From: an uncultured Alphaproteobacteria bacterium
GTDB lineage: Bacteria > Pseudomonadota > Alphaproteobacteria > Rs-D84
DNA length: 64,000 nucleotides
Assembly: GCA_944392775.1 (NCBI GenBank)
Contig: CALXXV010000003.1
Span: 61,279-125,278, forward strand
Direction of reading: 5' to 3'
Positions 2,972 through 55,507 of this stretch are shown here, in pieces (positions within the stretch are counted from its first letter, which is position 1; each line of letters begins with the position of its first letter). The notes under the pieces were generated by a model. It was not told the DNA's origin, did not search any database, and saw nothing but the letters and a program-made list of their open reading frames with translations. The translations under genes and the position numbers were made by a program.

Positions 2972-4610
2972 TTATACGATATTTCAGAGCAAAATTCTTT
3001 ACATAATCTAACTCTTCCGGAGACAATTGATAAATTGTCGCTAAACAATCATCAATTTCATCAATCTCTGCCTTGCACAATTTGTGCTTATACTCATATG
3101 TAGTCTGTTTTGTACCTATATATTTCTTTGTTTTTTCTAACTTGTTCTCAAGTAATTTGGCTAATTTTTTAACTGTTTTATCATGTGGAATTTTATCCGG
3201 GACAGAAAACCCTTCCAGATCCTTGTTCGTAATATGCCAACAATCCGATATAATGGTCCAATAGAGCCAGAACAAACTAGAATTAAGAACGCATAACATA
3301 AAAGGCAGGTATTCTTCTTTGTATTTAAATTGTTTATACTCGTTAGACCCAGGATCAAAGGAGAAGGCTTTTATCCAAAAACATGCTCTCATATTCAAGA
3401 AAATATCCTTGCCCGCATTGGCTTGTGTGCTCAATATGTTGCCATTGAACAAAGAGGAAATTTTTTTATATATGCTATACTCAAGCTTATTACCAATTTT
3501 CGGTATATATAATTTATCATTTCCTTTTACATCAAAGATTTCTCTTCCATTCAATAATTCTTGTCTTTCATTTTTATACCAATGCTTATACGTGGAAGAA
3601 AAGGTTTTACATACATCATTCCCCTGTTTAGCAATAAGGATTGATATCTTTTGATGTGCACCAACGAACAAACAATCTGGCCGATCCGCAAAATTCAATA
3701 CTATTTGTTTTTCGCATTTGTTGGTTACAAATTCACGAAGTTTTCCCATACGACTAGTGGACACATATGATAAAGGTAATATAAGTCCCAACGAACCATC
3801 TTTATGCAACAGATTCAAACTATTGACTAAAGTATCTGCATACAAATTTCCATAGTTAGTATGCAATTCTTTGTGTCTAGGATATTTTCCATATTCTACG
3901 TACGGGGGATTACCTACTATATAATCAAACTTATTGTGTATTTTTTTATAATCCAGAATAAAATCATAGTGGTAAAAAGTAGAATTTATCATTTCTGCTA
4001 ATTTCATGTAAGATTCAGCATTTTTCATGCATGGAATAATTGCAAAGAATATTCTCATTTTTGCAATATCAATTGATTCTGTTTCTATATCATTCCCAAA
4101 TACAGTGCCACATATTTTGATAACATCATCGTCAGATAGAGGTATCTTGGCAACATTACACAATTCTAATTTCCACTCTATTACGCTGATCAAAAACTCT
4201 CCTGATCCACAGGTAGGATCCATAAATGTACGACTAAAAACAAGATCTTGTATCTGCCCCTTATTCAAGGTGGCAATCTTTTTTATTGCATCTTTCGTTT
4301 TTAATAATTTTCCAACAGATAATAAACTGGATGCTATTGTGTTGGAAACGACATAATCAGCAACGTCTCGCTGAGTATAATAAATACCTTTCTGCTTACG
4401 ATGTGTTTTAGAAAAAATATCTTGAAATGTCCTTATGGATATGTCTATATCGGATTTCTTGCTTAAAATATTATCTAAATTATATTTTATATAATTGCCA
4501 TTCAATAATATATGTAAAGCCTTCGTTGCCATGCCGACATCGATACTACCACAATTACGACTATTGCACCAACCAGCACATATAATATCTTCTATATTTT
4601 GCACAAACAT
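2952..4610 (-). CDS. N6-adenine DNA methyltransferase, gamma-class (Eco57I/TaqI-like), with C-terminal TRD
   Basis: Motif I FMDPTCGSGEF then motif IV GNPPY. The track start at 4637 is a GTG; ATG at 4610 (MFVQNIEDII) has an AAGGAA RBS, so the start was adjusted. Confidence 0.8.
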   Translation of the reverse strand: MFVQNIEDIICAGWCNSRNCGSIDVGMATKALHILLNGNYIKYNLDNILSKKSDIDISIRTFQDIFSKTHRKQKGIYYTQRDVADYVVSNTIASSLLSVGKLLKTKDAIKKIATLNKGQIQDLVFSRTFMDPTCGSGEFLISVIEWKLELCNVAKIPLSDDDVIKICGTVFGNDIETESIDIAKMRIFFAIIPCMKNAESYMKLAEMINSTFYHYDFILDYKKIHNKFDYIVGNPPYVEYGKYPRHKELHTNYGNLYADTLVNSLNLLHKDGSLGLILPLSYVSTSRMGKLREFVTNKCEKQIVLNFADRPDCLFVGAHQKISILIAKQGNDVCKTFSSTYKHWYKNERQELLNGREIFDVKGNDKLYIPKIGNKLEYSIYKKISSLFNGNILSTQANAGKDIFLNMRACFWIKAFSFDPGSNEYKQFKYKEEYLPFMLCVLNSSLFWLYWTIISDCWHITNKDLEGFSVPDKIPHDKTVKKLAKLLENKLEKTKKYIGTKQTTYEYKHKLCKAEIDEIDDCLATIYQLSPEELDYVKNFALKYRISGGADD

Positions 4611-48491: not shown

Positions 48492-49280
48492 ATGAAAAAA
48501 TTGGTACACAAAAACATAAATATAATTGCATTATTCTTGCTGTTACCAATACCCGTACTGGGGGCAACAGATTCTTTTGACTTTAACAATTTTATAATAA
48601 CAGACAGTGCAGATGCAGATCTTACGACCAGTGCAATTACAATGAATGCAGACGCAGAACCTGTTGACGTAAGTAATTTTGATATTGCGGGAATTATTTT
48701 AGGAACACCTTTTGAAAATGTAGAAAGTTTATTTTTTAAGAACAACGGTTTATATGCCCCGCGTTCAAAAAACGCAATAATATATACAATAAATAAAGAT
48801 TGGAAATATAATCTTGACTACGAATGCCGCTTACAAGGTATTGTTGCACCGGCAGAACTAGAACAATGTATAAATACCTTAGCCAAAAACAGAGGGTTAT
48901 TGTATGCATCAGAAGTCCATCTGCTGCGTGAAAATACAGGCGAGACAATTACAGTATATTTTACAAGCAACGCAACAGATAACCTTGTATGGAAAATTGT
49001 ATATAATAATGATGTTAACGAAATAGAAGGCGATCACGAAAAATTCGAAAATCAACGCGAGAAAAAAATTCTTGTATTTTGGCAAAACGTCTTGGATAAA
49101 TATGGCGCTCCAAATTCTGGAACCGATAAATGGATAACCACGACGAATCCATATGATCCAATTATGACGGCATATTATGGGGCACTAGAATTAGTTGACT
49201 TGGGACGCTATAGTTCTGATGAAGCTAAGAATATTCAACAAGCACGAGAAAATTTTAAGGCAAAATCTTACGCTTTCTAA
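48492..49280 (+). CDS. Secreted hypothetical protein (signal peptide)
   Basis: N-terminal signal LLLPIPVLGA. Confidence 0.45.
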   Translation: MKKLVHKNINIIALFLLLPIPVLGATDSFDFNNFIITDSADADLTTSAITMNADAEPVDVSNFDIAGIILGTPFENVESLFFKNNGLYAPRSKNAIIYTINKDWKYNLDYECRLQGIVAPAELEQCINTLAKNRGLLYASEVHLLRENTGETITVYFTSNATDNLVWKIVYNNDVNEIEGDHEKFENQREKKILVFWQNVLDKYGAPNSGTDKWITTTNPYDPIMTAYYGALELVDLGRYSSDEAKNIQQARENFKAKSYAF

Positions 49281-49339
49281 AGTTTTTATAAAAACCCTTT
49301 ACAAATATCCATAATAAAATTACAATTAGTACGGATTTC

Positions 49340-49545
49340 AATAGGGATTGAAGTTCGGGACTTAGAAACTCCCATCATTTATGCCCGATGCGAAAGCATC
49401 GTTTATACAAAAGATGCATTCGCATCGTTATCCCGGCAAACTGGTCGGGAAGCCGTTGGTTATACAACAGGGCTTGCCCAAAGACCAAACGGGGTCATCT
49501 GGCACAAGTGACGTTTCTAACTTCCCGACCGCCAATTTTTATTGG
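49340..49545 (+). ncRNA. Candidate structured non-coding RNA (about 200 nt), locally GC-rich, ending in an intrinsic terminator. Family not recognised
   Basis: Nested helices: GNRA hairpin CGATGC-GAAA-GCATCG; GATGC-ATTC-GCATC; 10-bp long-range pairing GGTCGGGAAG (49433-49442) with CTTCCCGACC (49511-49520). Terminator ACCGCCAA-TTTTTA-TTGGTGGT-TTTTC. Confidence 0.4.
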
Positions 49546-49559
49546 TGGTTTTTCTTTAC

Positions 49560-49660
49560 CTAGTGTTTCCGACTTTATTCCCAAACGGGTGGATGCGCAT
49601 GTCATATATTGAAAGCATGCGGGATTAGAAAAAGCTTTTCTGATTGTTTGAACATCCACC
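49560..49660 (+). promoter_or_regulatory. Structured leader upstream of the RgpF-like gene: 9-bp stem GGGTGGATG...CATCCACCC enclosing CGCATG...CATGCG
   Basis: Direct reading. Lies between the candidate RNA terminator and the start codon at 49689. Confidence 0.35.
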
Positions 49661-49688
49661 CCCAAAAGTAAAAAAGGCTAGGAAAAAA

Positions 49689-50588
49689 ATGTCAAAAAGA
49701 TTGTTTATATTTGCTGCATATGATAAAGATAGTATTATAGATGAAACATTATTTTATTATTTAAAAAAACTATCTGAACTTGGCGACATTATATTTACAA
49801 TGGATAATGATAATGTCAGCAAAAATGAATTAAATAAAATTGCAAAAATCCCAAACGTGTTAAGCGTAATGGCGAAAAGACATGGTGAATATGATTTTGG
49901 GTCTTATAAGCGCGGATATAGCTATGCAAAAAATCATAAAATTTTAAAGAACTATGATTTTATATATTTTGTAAATGACTCTGTATACGGTCCATTATTT
50001 GATTTAAAACCAGTGTTGGAAAAAATGGAATCTGAAAACGCGGGTAACGCATGGGGAATGATGGGGCTTCATAACACCGAAAAAGAACAATACGGTTATC
50101 CTGACCATGTACAATCTTGGTTTGTCGGAATTGCAGGAAAAATTTGCCAAGAATCTTGGTTCGATGAATTTATGAGTAATATAAAACATCAAGATTCAAA
50201 AGAACAAGTTGTTTGGAAATATGAAATAGGTTTAAGTCAATTACTAATGGAACATAACATACAAATAGGAAGACTTGAAGAAAAAATATGCGGTTTAAAA
50301 ATTTATAATGGTCCTATTAAAGGTATACCCTTCTTAAAAAAATTATCAATTCACAATATTCCGAAAACAAAAAATTTATTAAAAATAATCCCACAAGATT
50401 TACAAAATGCTTTTATGGGAAGTATTACTCGATTAGAACTACATAAATCGCCCTATACGACTATTTGGAAAATAAAATTATTTAATAAGATTACAATATT
50501 AATGTTTGAATGTAAAAGAGATAAAAGCGAATATATATTATGGTTATTTAAATTGTTCCCCATAAAATATTTGTGTTACAAAAAATAA
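49689..50588 (+). CDS. RgpF-like (rhamnan synthesis protein F family) polysaccharide biosynthesis protein
   Basis: Family-like sequence. Start adjusted to MSKRLFIF with RBS. Confidence 0.5.
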   Translation: MSKRLFIFAAYDKDSIIDETLFYYLKKLSELGDIIFTMDNDNVSKNELNKIAKIPNVLSVMAKRHGEYDFGSYKRGYSYAKNHKILKNYDFIYFVNDSVYGPLFDLKPVLEKMESENAGNAWGMMGLHNTEKEQYGYPDHVQSWFVGIAGKICQESWFDEFMSNIKHQDSKEQVVWKYEIGLSQLLMEHNIQIGRLEEKICGLKIYNGPIKGIPFLKKLSIHNIPKTKNLLKIIPQDLQNAFMGSITRLELHKSPYTTIWKIKLFNKITILMFECKRDKSEYILWLFKLFPIKYLCYKK

Positions 50589-51804: not shown

Positions 51805-51830
51805 CCCCGGTTTTTATGCACCGAAACATT
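51805..51830. terminator. Bidirectional terminator AAAAACCGGG-TAAC-CCCGGTTTTT
   Basis: Between convergent genes. Confidence 0.65.
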
Positions 51831-52275
51831 TATCTATGTACACGTTTGATACACCACTTCCTTTAATAACACTTCCCTTTTTTACCATAACATAAGTACT
51901 TTTATTTATATATGAAGAACCACTTTGTTCTGAAAAAACCAGAACATCATCAACATACAAAAAAAGATTTGAATTATTTTGTATAAATGTTGCAAAACAA
52001 TAACCATTATAGGGCATTGTATAAGGCAACGTTACTTGTTTTCTGCTAGAGGTATCAGGCATCAATAATTCCATTATGCAATCTTTTTGAACAGCTGATA
52101 GATTCGATAAATCTAAAATTTCGCTTTTCTTCGCTAATACTGTTCCCCCAACCGTTTCTCCGTCATGAACACGAAGGGTTTTGTTCGTAGTATCCATAGT
52201 AACTTCACCTATAACCCCAGTAAAATTTTCGTGTTCTACAGAAGTTCCCCTACGTATTTGTATTTGTCTGGACAT
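51814..52275 (-). CDS. Phage tail-fibre-like protein, Mtd_N-type N-terminal domain. Paralog of 29191-29763
   Basis: MSRQIQIRRGTSVEHENFTGVIGEVTMDTTNKTLRVHDGETVGG. Confidence 0.55.
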   Translation of the reverse strand: MSRQIQIRRGTSVEHENFTGVIGEVTMDTTNKTLRVHDGETVGGTVLAKKSEILDLSNLSAVQKDCIMELLMPDTSSRKQVTLPYTMPYNGYCFATFIQNNSNLFLYVDDVLVFSEQSGSSYINKSTYVMVKKGSVIKGSGVSNVYIDKCFGA

Positions 52276-53402: not shown

Positions 53403-54626
53403 TTATAATAATGTTTCTTCTAATGCCATTTTGGCAATCGGGGCAATATATTTTAATTCTGCATCACTATGCAAAGATATTTTATCTATCACACCTCGAC
53501 GTGACAAAATTTGTAAACCGCGTTCACATAACGGTCTTATAAATTCGTGCAATAATCTACCATATGTTGCCCCAAGAATTCTCATCATATCGGCATTACG
53601 CGCCATTATTTCGGTTGCGGTCATTTCTTTTTCTGACAGTAACCCTAATCTATCTGCTAATAACGCATGTCTTATTCTTTCACGCAAATCTTTTAAAACT
53701 ATCTGAGATACATCAAAATCCGCCCCAGAAGATAACGGCGTCAAACCCGAGCTTCCAACTGCTTTTGGAATTATTGCCCCCGGTGTTAAATTTATATTAG
53801 ATAAATTTATAACCCCATCATCATCAGCTTGCCAAATACCAGATACCGCTATTGTTGCATTCTTTAAAACTAGTTCTACTACTTTATTCGCTGTTTTTAT
53901 GTCAGGTAATGCACGCAATACGGGACCTCTTCCATAAAGTTCACCACTGGCAACAGACCAACGGAAAATTAAATACGGGTTAGTTTCGAAAGTCCCCTTG
54001 GATACAATGTTATTTTCTATTTCCCCACCAACGTCTAGCCATGCTGTAAATTCTGTACCAACTAGACTTTGAACCAATCTTAAAGGATAGTCTGGATCTT
54101 TTTTTATAACATCTCTTATATCTAATGGTGGGGTCCAAGACGGGTATTTTTCTATAACTTCTTTGGCCGGCATAGAGGTTGTATGAAATATAGCGTTGGG
54201 TAATATCGCAATATCTCTCATTGGAATCGCAGTAAATGAAAACGCAGAATCTGCACCGATTGGATTTTCAGCCATAAACAAACAGGCAGTTCCCAGAATT
54301 ACTAAATCAAGATAACATTGATGTATTGTCGTATAAAAGTTAGAATCATTTAAATTGGCACGTAATGCGTTTGTTGCATTTATTGCATTTGGAGACTCTT
54401 CACTTTCTGGAATCAAAGAAATCCATAAAGATTCAGGTGGCGTCAATAAAGAATACATCGATGCAGCTAGATTATCAACCGCATCGGCGGCAGTCGCGTC
54501 AAATAACATAGCAACTTCATCGTCTGCCGTAGGCATTGTATAACGTAGCGCGCTGTCCCATCTATTTAACCATGGAGCACGTAAATCGAGTGCTCTACGA
54601 TACATTTGTTGTAAATTATTTTGCAT
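53403..54626 (-). CDS. Putative phage portal (head-to-tail connector) protein
   Basis: About 400 aa, immediately downstream of the terminase nuclease half. Start adjusted to MQNNLQQMYRR. Confidence 0.45.
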   Translation of the reverse strand: MQNNLQQMYRRALDLRAPWLNRWDSALRYTMPTADDEVAMLFDATAADAVDNLAASMYSLLTPPESLWISLIPESEESPNAINATNALRANLNDSNFYTTIHQCYLDLVILGTACLFMAENPIGADSAFSFTAIPMRDIAILPNAIFHTTSMPAKEVIEKYPSWTPPLDIRDVIKKDPDYPLRLVQSLVGTEFTAWLDVGGEIENNIVSKGTFETNPYLIFRWSVASGELYGRGPVLRALPDIKTANKVVELVLKNATIAVSGIWQADDDGVINLSNINLTPGAIIPKAVGSSGLTPLSSGADFDVSQIVLKDLRERIRHALLADRLGLLSEKEMTATEIMARNADMMRILGATYGRLLHEFIRPLCERGLQILSRRGVIDKISLHSDAELKYIAPIAKMALEETLL

Positions 54627-54643
54627 TTTTGCTCCTTTTTTTA

Positions 54644-55507
54644 TTACAACGTAAAATCCGTATTTGCGGTAAAAGGTTTTATTATGTGTCCCTGCGGACG
54701 AACTGGCATTGGTAACGCACATATAGCACCTGCAACTGCATCTAAACCATCATCATGACCGGTATTGCCTATAGGTGACCACCCAAGCATTTCTGACAAT
54801 AAAGGAGTACTTTGAACGCGTCTATGTGCATGAAGACGCCCTGTGGTCAAGACAGGTTCAATAGAATCTAAGATTCTTGTTTCCTTTTTTTCATGATTTA
54901 GTATTTTTTGAACTTGTAAGCTTATACCACGACGTTGTGTTATATTTCTCATTATTTCTGGTAATGCATTACCCATACCATTTGTTTCTATATAAATTTT
55001 ATGCAATGAATATTTTGATAAGAAATCAAGAACCATTTCGCACTGACTTGCTAATGGATACATATCTTCATCTGATACCAATAAATATTTAACATCATGT
55101 ATAAAAAAATGTTTATTTTTATCATCCCTGTAAATCAAAACGCATACACTACCATCTGATTTTTTTCGTCCGGACGAAGGGTCCCAGTATGCAGTTACAC
55201 CAGTAATTAAAACATCACCTATCTTTGCCGTTCTGGAATCAAATTCACTTTCATATAAATGTAAAGAATCGGGATCTAATCTTGCCCTATCTGGAGCTAC
55301 AAATTGTAACATCATTTGAGCAGAAAAATATCGTGCCCCGACAACATTTCGTAATTCGTCTATTTTCTGCATAGAAAATACTTCGGGCCACGCAGGGTTT
55401 CCCATTTCATCAACTATAGGTATTTTTAATTCACGATAACCACGTAAAAAAGGCGTTGAAAAAACAAAATTTTTATATACTATATCTGACATGGACTTTA
55501 CTCCCAA
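54644..55507 (-). pseudogene. Large terminase subunit, C-terminal nuclease-domain fragment (second half of the split gene)
   Basis: RNase-H-like nuclease region with acidic residues. In-order continuation of the ATPase fragment at 58822-59472. Confidence 0.55.

Follow-up and report, generated by a model that had tools for sequence, protein, structure and literature searches.

Phages P1 and P4 both control antirepressor or early genes from the genes' own leader, which is laid out as a1b1-c4-a2b2 in P1 and as seqA, seqB/CI, seqC in P4, and the c4 and CI RNAs are matured from that leader by RNase P. Conserved untranslated leaders of variable surface-polysaccharide genes include JUMPStart/ops with RfaH and the Bacillus eps EAR RNA, in which control of elongation or termination is likely. 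The C4 RNA regulates Ant (PMC8201110). The small RNA (sRNA) sRNA-Xcc1 (Rfam RF02221) was described experimentally as a discrete sRNA of ~88 nt, or ~100 nt on Northern blot (PMC2996969), and is found ahead of symE or antirepressor-type genes on integrons, phages, plasmids and islands (bioRxiv 10.1101/2025.06.18.660453). Automatic annotation places it in many genomes, and it has been discussed as a trans-acting sRNA linked to virulence. Here we analyzed a structured tract at 49340-49660 of a 64,000-nt stretch of DNA (the window) from an uncultured alphaproteobacterium. The element it contains is an enlarged, terminator-coupled variant of the sRNA-Xcc1 family and the leader of a variable glycan locus. 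We propose that the tract is probably a 5' leader with its own promoter that acts in cis, attenuating transcription of a variable glycan-gene island.

The tract lies in the intergenic interval 49281-49688, between a gene for a 262-aa protein (48492-49280) and an RgpF-like gene (ATG at 49689; Pfam RgpF, E = 1.8e-18), which is followed by a WbsX glycosyltransferase gene. Its local guanine-plus-cytosine (GC) content is 0.45-0.49, compared to 34.5% for the window. On the + strand, 49330-49560 folds with a minimum free energy of -93.2 kcal/mol versus -57.9 +/- 4.9 for 200 dinucleotide shuffles (z = -7.2), and 0 of the 200 shuffles were as good, although shuffle counts here and below are not to be read as probabilities. 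Because much of the tract is an imperfect palindrome, the minus strand is almost equally stable (z = -6.4), and we therefore took the strand from the promoter, the terminator and conservation instead of folding energy. For comparison we used 80 species-level loci around the 262-aa gene, with titles such as 'Candidatus Enterousia'; these, and the metagenome, viral and plasmid loci described below, are cited by L numbers. Both hexamers of the predicted promoter are kept across Enterousia species while their flanks have diverged (alignment A2), and an equivalent promoter (TTGCAA, 17 nt, TATAAT) precedes the homologous element in L146. The 10-bp stem, 4-nt loop and U-tract further downstream fit the definition of an intrinsic (Rho-independent) terminator and are conserved in 20 of 20 family members; promoter and terminator are both conserved in orthologues. 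Judged from these signals, the predicted transcript is ~225 nt long (49333-49558).

Several other identities were ruled out. Two open reading frames (ORFs) of 60 aa and 74 aa overlap the tract, but both are broken by stops or frameshifts in orthologues, which excludes a coding remnant. The element is single-copy in the window, has a fixed orientation and shows covariation instead of sequence identity, which excludes a repeat, a miniature inverted-repeat transposable element or a repetitive extragenic palindromic element. Transfer-messenger RNA, RNase P, signal recognition particle and 6S RNAs were dismissed, as neither Rfam nor ARAGORN gave a match to them and the element is not present at this locus in most Enterousia species. 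Finally, GC-rich 'intergenic' tracts after the 262-aa gene in other species are not analogous RNAs but yraN (UPF0102) with a non-ATG start.

The leader consists, in order, of the promoter, hairpins P0, HL, H1 and H2, an anti-P1 segment, a three-way junction closed by helix P1, the terminator, a spacer of ~30 nt, a second structured domain (element 2) and the ribosome-binding site (Table 1). In an alignment of 20 sequences, 93% of cells are paired across the whole structure, and both sides have changed in 49 of 58 pairs; none of 500 shuffles matches the observed pairing, and controls in which the structure was slid reach 35-49%. The sequences were aligned with a covariance model, since MAFFT (A4) misaligned the 5' hairpin of one lineage against that of another. 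One long hairpin formed from H1 and H2 was considered and rejected: in other taxa the relatives' H1 and H2 have unrelated sequences, which makes them two distinct hairpins. These comparisons establish the RNA structure and bear out what a preliminary description had read by eye from the letters, namely a GC-rich structured non-coding tract with a GNRA-capped hairpin (H1), a second hairpin (H2), a 10-bp long-range helix enclosing further stems (P1), an intrinsic terminator of its own, which a terminator scan also found, and a second nested stem system ahead of the RgpF-like gene (element 2), which is conserved over nine species. It had likewise seen no RNase P, SRP, 6S or tmRNA signature, and both the covariation and the conservation in related genomes on which it had made its reading depend were found, the latter across Enterousia and the more distant relatives described below as class B. 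The promoter, the 5' hairpin and the HL hairpin, whose loop pairs with the junction, had been missed.

Table 1. Features of the leader and their positions in the window
Feature	Position	Strand	Sequence and remarks
Predicted sigma-70-type promoter	49298-49326	+	TTTACA, 17-nt spacer, TACAAT; promoter scan 10/12; predicted start ~49333
P0, 5'-terminal hairpin	49333-49356	+	GGATTTCAAT-AGGG-ATTGAAGTTC; 10/10 pairs change on both sides, 96% of cells paired (20 sequences)
HL hairpin	49357-49373	+	GGGA-CUUAGAAAC-UCCC; 4/4 stem pairs covary
HL loop L1	49361-49369	+	Complementary to junction J4/1 (49513-49520)
H1 hairpin	49386-49401	+	CGATGC-GAAA-GCATCG; 6/6 pairs covary, 100% of cells paired
H2 hairpin	49413-49426	+	GATGC-ATTC-GCATC; 4/5 pairs covary
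Anti-P1 segment	49431-49437	+	TCCCGGC, near copy of P1 3' strand; can pair with GTCGGGA (49444-49450)
Three-way-junction core	49443-49530	+	Distant homology to sRNA-Xcc1
P1 helix, 10 bp	49443-49452 with 49521-49530	+	GGTCGGGAAG with CTTCCCGACC
P2	49453-61 with 49483-92	+	
Internal loop in P2-P3 arm	49462-69	+	AUACAACA
P3	49470-72 with 49477-79	+	
P4	49494-98 with 49508-12	+	
Junction J4/1	49513-20	+	GUUUCUAA
Intrinsic terminator	49527-49558	+	GACCGCCAAT-TTTT-ATTGGTGGTT then TTTCTTT; terminator scan
Element 2, second conserved three-way junction	49587-49661	+	Just ahead of RgpF-like gene
Element 2 outer stem	49587-49595 with 49653-49661	+	GGGTGGATG with CATCCACCC
Ribosome-binding region and start	49676-49691	+	AGGCTAGGA; ATG 49689 of RgpF-like gene, the first gene controlled

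At Rfam gathering thresholds the tract is without any match. A relaxed search matched 49443-49538 to sRNA-Xcc1 end to end (34.5 bits, E = 2.6e-4), below the family's gathering score of 53 bits. The window core and sRNA-Xcc1 share the three-way-junction fold (P1, a P2-P3 arm and a P4 arm), a near-identical P1 of GUCGGGA(A/G)G with C(U/C)UCCCGAC, an AUACAA internal loop, a UUUCUAAC junction, a hairpin further upstream with a loop that pairs with this junction, and an anti-P1 segment; the conserved Xcc1 sequences GUCGGGA, AUACAA, UUUCUAAC and UCCCGAC are all present in the window core. Unlike sRNA-Xcc1, the window has a ~225-nt unit that adds a 5' hairpin, two further hairpins and an intrinsic terminator overlapping P1, and it belongs to the chromosome of a gut alphaproteobacterium, with glycan or secreted-protein genes downstream instead of the symE or antirepressor-type genes of mobile elements. 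Because of the shared fold, the shared junction sequences and reciprocal model matches, we judge the homology, as far as sequence comparison can tell, to be distant but real. Formal membership of sRNA-Xcc1 does not apply: the score stays below the gathering value, and RgpF-like and WbsX genes stand where the usual Xcc1 gene context would be.

To place the element in a wider family, we searched metagenomes with a pattern taken only from bases conserved in Enterousia (GTCGGGNNGNC, 45-75 nt, TTCTAACNTCCCGAC). This gave more than 120 loci, most of which are GC-rich elements of 75-77 nt that are bona fide Xcc1 (56-81 bits), and 13 viral contigs behave likewise; GC-rich relatives as a whole span 56-85 bits. 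Further copies occur in Xanthomonas, Pseudomonas, Pantoea, E. coli, Azospirillum and Klebsiella IncL/M plasmids. A second group of ~10 loci, class B, lies on contigs of 39-51% GC, scores below the RF02221 threshold (L105, L110, L115, L140, L146, L179, L180 and L189) and has the full 225-nt architecture seen in the window; for the class B metagenome contigs, environment and taxon were taken from GC content and contig names only. A covariance model (R1) built solely from nine Enterousia sequences recovered class B at 120-250 bits and matched true Xcc1 at E = 1e-9 to 1e-5 over model positions 115-199. When the junction fold was scored on 50 distinct sequences, true Xcc1 among them, pairing held in 93.7% of cells and 23 of 27 pairs had changed on both sides, compared with 31-52% of cells in slid controls and with 0 of 500 shuffles reaching the observed value, on an alignment that was fitted to the model.

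The same model found more divergent copies at other Enterousia loci, which makes the module a multi-copy family in these small genomes: two in tandem in L025 (4769-4938 and 4982-5174), one in L037 (5142-5330, minus strand) and one in L060 (4733-4896, minus strand). All of these stand directly ahead of genes for small, Cys-rich proteins with signal peptides, and they re-code P1 and the loop-junction pair, for example as GGUUGGAGG with CCUCCAACC and UUAAGAAC with GUUCUUAA. By BLAST, the element had no match in a phage collection, and a true Xcc1 locus had none in E. coli genomes.

Three features lie outside the Rfam model. The first is the pairing of the HL loop with J4/1, which spans 8 bp in the window and covaries across the whole family, including true Xcc1. 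Next to the invariant TAGAA/TTCTA, the variable pairs (written as two loop bases : their two J4/1 partners) are AC:GT in more than 85 loci, GC:GC in 12, AA:TT in 5, CA:TG in 2, and TC:GA and CC:GG in 1 each, and the pair is fully re-coded in L025 (UUAAGAAC with GUUCUUAA) and L037 (UCAGAA with UUCUGA). Including its GGGA:UCCC extension, this helix has 92.9% of cells paired in the class B alignment (A6). The second is the anti-P1 helix (86% of cells paired on A6). Every lineage has such a segment immediately before the 5' strand of P1, and it changes along with P1, as in L037 (CUCCUGA with UCAGGAG) and L060 (CUCCGACC with GGUUGGAG), and true Xcc1 has one as well (CCGACGC with GCGTCGG). The third is the terminator, whose first four bases (GACC, 49527-30) are also the last four of the P1 3' strand, an overlap found in at least 14 of 20 family members. 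GACC forms the base pairs nearest the U-tract, and in a terminator those are the pairs that count most for termination; the terminator hairpin has an energy of -12.9 kcal/mol with GACC and -5.4 without it. The alternative pairings, and the overlap of P1 with the terminator, belong to the RNA and are conserved. The 87-nt Rfam model, seen from the comparison begun at the window, covers only the core of a larger conserved leader. The rest includes a loop that covaries with the junction it pairs with, a helix that competes with P1, and either a terminator or target sites, and this architecture points to cis, c4-like control of the next downstream gene.

Based on these pairings, we propose that the first ~225 nt form an enlarged, divergent sRNA-Xcc1 fold in which two foldings would compete. 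In the terminating form, anti-P1 (49431-37) would hold the P1 5' strand and the HL region (49357-69) would pair with J4/1 and the start of the P1 3' strand (49513-27), so that the full 10-bp terminator could form and release a stable RNA of ~225 nt. In the read-through form, P1 (49443-52 with 49521-30) would close the three-way junction, the HL loop would pair with J4/1 as a pseudoknot beside P1, and GACC would be taken from the base of the terminator, letting the polymerase continue via element 2 into the RgpF-like and WbsX genes. We infer both the alternation itself and the assignment of read-through to the P1-closed form. By nearest-neighbor energies the terminating form is favored over the P1-closed form by 7-11 kcal/mol with the loop-junction duplex not counted, and that duplex is worth about -6.8 kcal/mol. 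On this energy model, the default state is probably 'off', with the two states close enough to allow switching. As a trigger we favor, by analogy with the phage P1 c4 and P4 CI RNAs, either RNA-RNA self-control by accumulated terminated leader or a protein factor over a metabolite.

The gene content of the locus ties the element to the glycan genes. The 262-aa protein belongs to no known family, has matches only in uncultured gut Alphaproteobacteria ('Candidatus Enterousia') and is preceded by rseP, bamA and two more genes without a family. In most species yraN directly follows it. In the window, L008, L020, L022, L057 and L058, an island of glycan genes (GT2, RgpF, LicD, WbsX and others) has entered at this point, with the element at the island's 5' edge. 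It lies 3' of yraN in L076, still ahead of the island genes, and L009 and L010 carry a central-deleted version at the same position. Leaders from the window's own species share at least 97% identity, yet the first gene is either RgpF or LicD, with sequence similarity ending ~19 nt inside that gene. Because the element sits at the edge of the island and stays constant while the first gene varies, it goes with the glycan genes and not with the upstream gene. Enterousia is an uncultured alphaproteobacterium of the human and animal gut with a genome of ~1 Mb, and the leader is a likely control point of its strain-variable surface-glycan locus and of several secreted-protein genes; of all its genes, these are the likeliest to shape how it interacts with host and phage.

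Evidence for action in cis comes from the placement of the family as a whole. At more than 100 loci the element has the same orientation and lies ~15-200 nt 5' of an ORF. Between terminator stem and start codon there are 10-42 nt in L146, L037, L105, L140 and L179, and a similarly short distance, judged by eye, in L060, L110, L180 and L183. In class B and the divergent Enterousia copies, ribosome-binding sites are found 10-35 nt after the U-tract (for example, in L146, L183, L180, L110, L037 and L060), which leaves no room for a promoter, so that expression of those genes requires read-through of the terminator. In the window itself, the 130-nt gap from terminator to ATG is occupied by the conserved element 2, and a promoter scan of 49558-49688 gave no promoter-like site on the + strand. 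Together, the short terminator-to-start gaps and the lack of a promoter-like site in the window gap favor attenuation in cis; the terminated 225-nt RNA would then be a by-product or a co-regulator.

A free-standing, trans-acting sRNA gene of ~225 nt, merely adjacent to cargo genes, with the glycan genes read from their own unrecognized promoter, is rather unlikely on the same grounds: the position immediately 5' of an ORF and the orientation are fixed in more than 100 loci, a promoter cannot fit ahead of the ribosome-binding sites of several relatives, the window's 49558-49688 has no promoter-like site, and the UUUCUAAC stretch that might act as a seed has a covarying partner on the same RNA. 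Such a gene would account for the element having its own promoter and strong terminator, its conserved single-stranded AUACAA and UUUCUAAC could be seeds, and Xcc1 itself gives a discrete RNA of ~100 nt on Northern blot (PMC2996969), which makes a trans role possible.

That last observation is one of several that weigh against the attenuator. L011 keeps the element with yraN directly after it and has no glycan genes, as a free-standing sRNA would allow. In L009 (3823-3955) and L010 (~3776-3870) the promoter, 5' hairpin, terminator and element 2 are kept and the central Xcc1-like domain is lost or replaced, which makes them natural deletion variants; with L011, these loci show that some lineages can dispense with the core. 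The overlap between P1 and the terminator is 4 nt only, and the promoter, the terminator and read-through are predictions. The alignments behind the pair counts (A6 and A7) were fitted to the model and so lean towards it. In addition, a local HL stem, an extended closing helix and a simple loop-junction pseudoknot are inseparable by covariation, because the same short GGGA and UCCC recur in all three.

Attenuation at the terminator is also how a metabolite riboswitch would work, with the junction as an aptamer (for a sugar nucleotide, for example) and the ligand stabilizing P1 and suppressing the terminator. As in terminator-type riboswitches and attenuators, the window has a structured, putatively sensing domain whose closing helix would compete with an alternative helix and overlaps an intrinsic terminator, its aptamer-like junction has highly conserved nucleotides, and glycan genes lie downstream. 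Unlike them, it has no known ligand class, coherent metabolic association or leader peptide. No riboswitch family scored better than E = 10 in 49200-49750, where only SAM/SAH was listed, at 11 bits. The genes after true Xcc1 encode SymE_toxin, Phage_pRha (Rha), Bro-N or KilA-N/P22_AR_C; those after class B copies encode glycosyltransferases, small secreted Cys-rich proteins or a helix-turn-helix (HTH) protein; and Enterousia-type leaders precede the glycan genes GT2, RgpF and LicD. Riboswitch classes normally share a metabolic theme, and the family is mostly found on phages, plasmids and integrative elements. With the same fold ahead of functionally unrelated genes, a metabolite riboswitch is therefore very unlikely. 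Like JUMPStart/ops and EAR, the window's leader is conserved, untranslated and placed ahead of variable surface-polysaccharide genes, with control probably exerted on elongation or termination. It has no sequence or Rfam match to them, has a different structure and belongs to a family that also precedes non-glycan genes.

These comparisons settle how the interpretation in the preliminary description fared. It had proposed a novel sRNA, and the element is indeed a structured non-coding unit, but not a wholly novel one, since its core is a distant relative of RF02221, which is not visible by eye. Its sRNA plus cis-regulatory leader survives in that a second structured leader element follows ahead of the glycan genes, with a free-standing sRNA possible but not the simplest reading. 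From its riboswitch with a terminator platform, control at the terminator is the best supported mechanism, and a metabolite is unlikely. In sum, the observation is confirmed and the interpretation partly supported.

Parallels to the proposed attenuator are the phage P1/P7 c4 and P4 CI RNAs. Like the window, they have a small folded domain inside the leader of the operon they control, with a short unpaired stretch whose complements lie elsewhere on that transcript, and, as in the role proposed here, they bring about premature termination or block downstream genes. c4 controls ant, and true Xcc1 members precede antirepressor-type genes. The order of site, antisense junction and site in viral Xcc1 loci also recalls c4 and CI: in 11 of 13 such loci the loop sequence recurs 9-30 nt after P1, ahead of the ribosome-binding site, and therefore lies on both sides of the junction. 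The phage copies (L210-L222, with L214 and L213 as examples) carry a second GUAGAAAC within a hairpin that separates the junction from the ribosome-binding site, and the gene that follows is Rha, Bro-N or KilA-N. Unlike in c4 and CI, the partner in the window is mainly upstream (L1), an intrinsic terminator overlaps P1, and processing and action in trans are putative.

Taken literally, this parallel gives a processed antisense RNA of the c4/CI type, in which the junction would be cut from the leader (for example, by RNase P) and J4/1 would act on L1 and UUAGAAAA sites of nascent transcripts, repressing downstream genes. Besides the viral loci and their antirepressor-type genes, it could draw on an L1-like UUAGAAAA inside element 2 of the window (49625-49632) and on a tRNA-like G/A-CCA (RCCA) directly after P1, present at 49531-49534 and in 13 of 20 class B sequences (A6 columns 332-336). 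This RCCA resembles the discriminator-plus-CCA end of tRNA precursors recognized by RNase P, but could equally well be a by-product of the terminator stem sequence. Only around half of the orthologues carry the L1-like copy, in L058 it does not change together with J4/1, and a clear second site is missing from other class B relatives. Rfam C4 (RF01695) and IsrK gave no match even at E up to 10. We consider the processed antisense RNA highly improbable for the window, although it overlaps the attenuator instead of excluding it.

A broader proposal, which we put forward only tentatively, is that the whole sRNA-Xcc1 family is, instead of a simple trans-acting sRNA, the core of a leader-encoded RNA control module, a third lineage beside P1 c4 and P4 CI, that silences toxin or antirepressor genes on phages, plasmids and islands and was domesticated in Enterousia and relatives as a terminator-coupled switch. 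If so, the module would begin with an upstream loop and an antisense junction, followed by either a second copy of the target or a terminator, and domestication would have placed several copies per genome ahead of surface-glycan and secreted-protein genes.

Element 2 is a conserved structure in its own right. Its outer stem encloses two inner hairpins (CGCATG...CATGCG and ATTAGAAAA...TTTTCTGAT) and an invariant single-stranded stretch (TTGTTTGAAC / UUGUUUGAAC), and RNAalifold predicted 24 pairs over nine species, 9 of which have compensatory changes. It is also conserved in L009, L010 and L189. A search for a partner of the invariant UUGUUUGAAC returned only a weak, non-conserved match, to the anti-P1 loop. 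The topology, with an outer stem, two arms, a 9-nt junction and a closing strand, mirrors that of the Xcc1 core, and model R1 weakly matches the L009 copy (11 bits, E = 0.17). Element 2 may be a degenerate tandem duplicate.

Several minor observations concern true Xcc1 copies and the surroundings of the locus. The flank upstream of true Xcc1 (for example, L088 at ~400-700) contains a TTGACA box, a hairpin GGAG-CGUAGAAAC-CUCC and a hairpin followed by U6; no Rfam family covers these parts. A terminator scan found nothing on L088, and the hairpin with U6, which has an 11-nt loop, is 'terminator-like' by eye only. An unannotated Xcc1 copy lies on a Klebsiella pneumoniae IncL/M plasmid (L208; OW849252.1, 9850-9922), 47 nt 5' of a 'hypothetical protein' that Pfam identifies as KilA-N plus a P22 antirepressor C-terminal domain, and the same arrangement occurs in several clinical Klebsiella and Enterobacter plasmids of 63-69 kb. 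On the minus strand of the window, 51814-52275 encodes an Mtd_N (Major-tropism-determinant N-terminal domain) protein and 53403-54722 a T7-type head-to-tail connector (portal) protein. Both lie just past the two glycan genes, so the glycan island abuts phage-like genes, and L011 has a portal-like gene in the same neighborhood. Finally, one locus with an Enterousia-type 262-aa gene (70% identity) came from a contig titled 'Bacteroides fragilis isolate ... cleanbin' (L029; CAVGNU010000004.1), which is probably mis-binned or contaminating.

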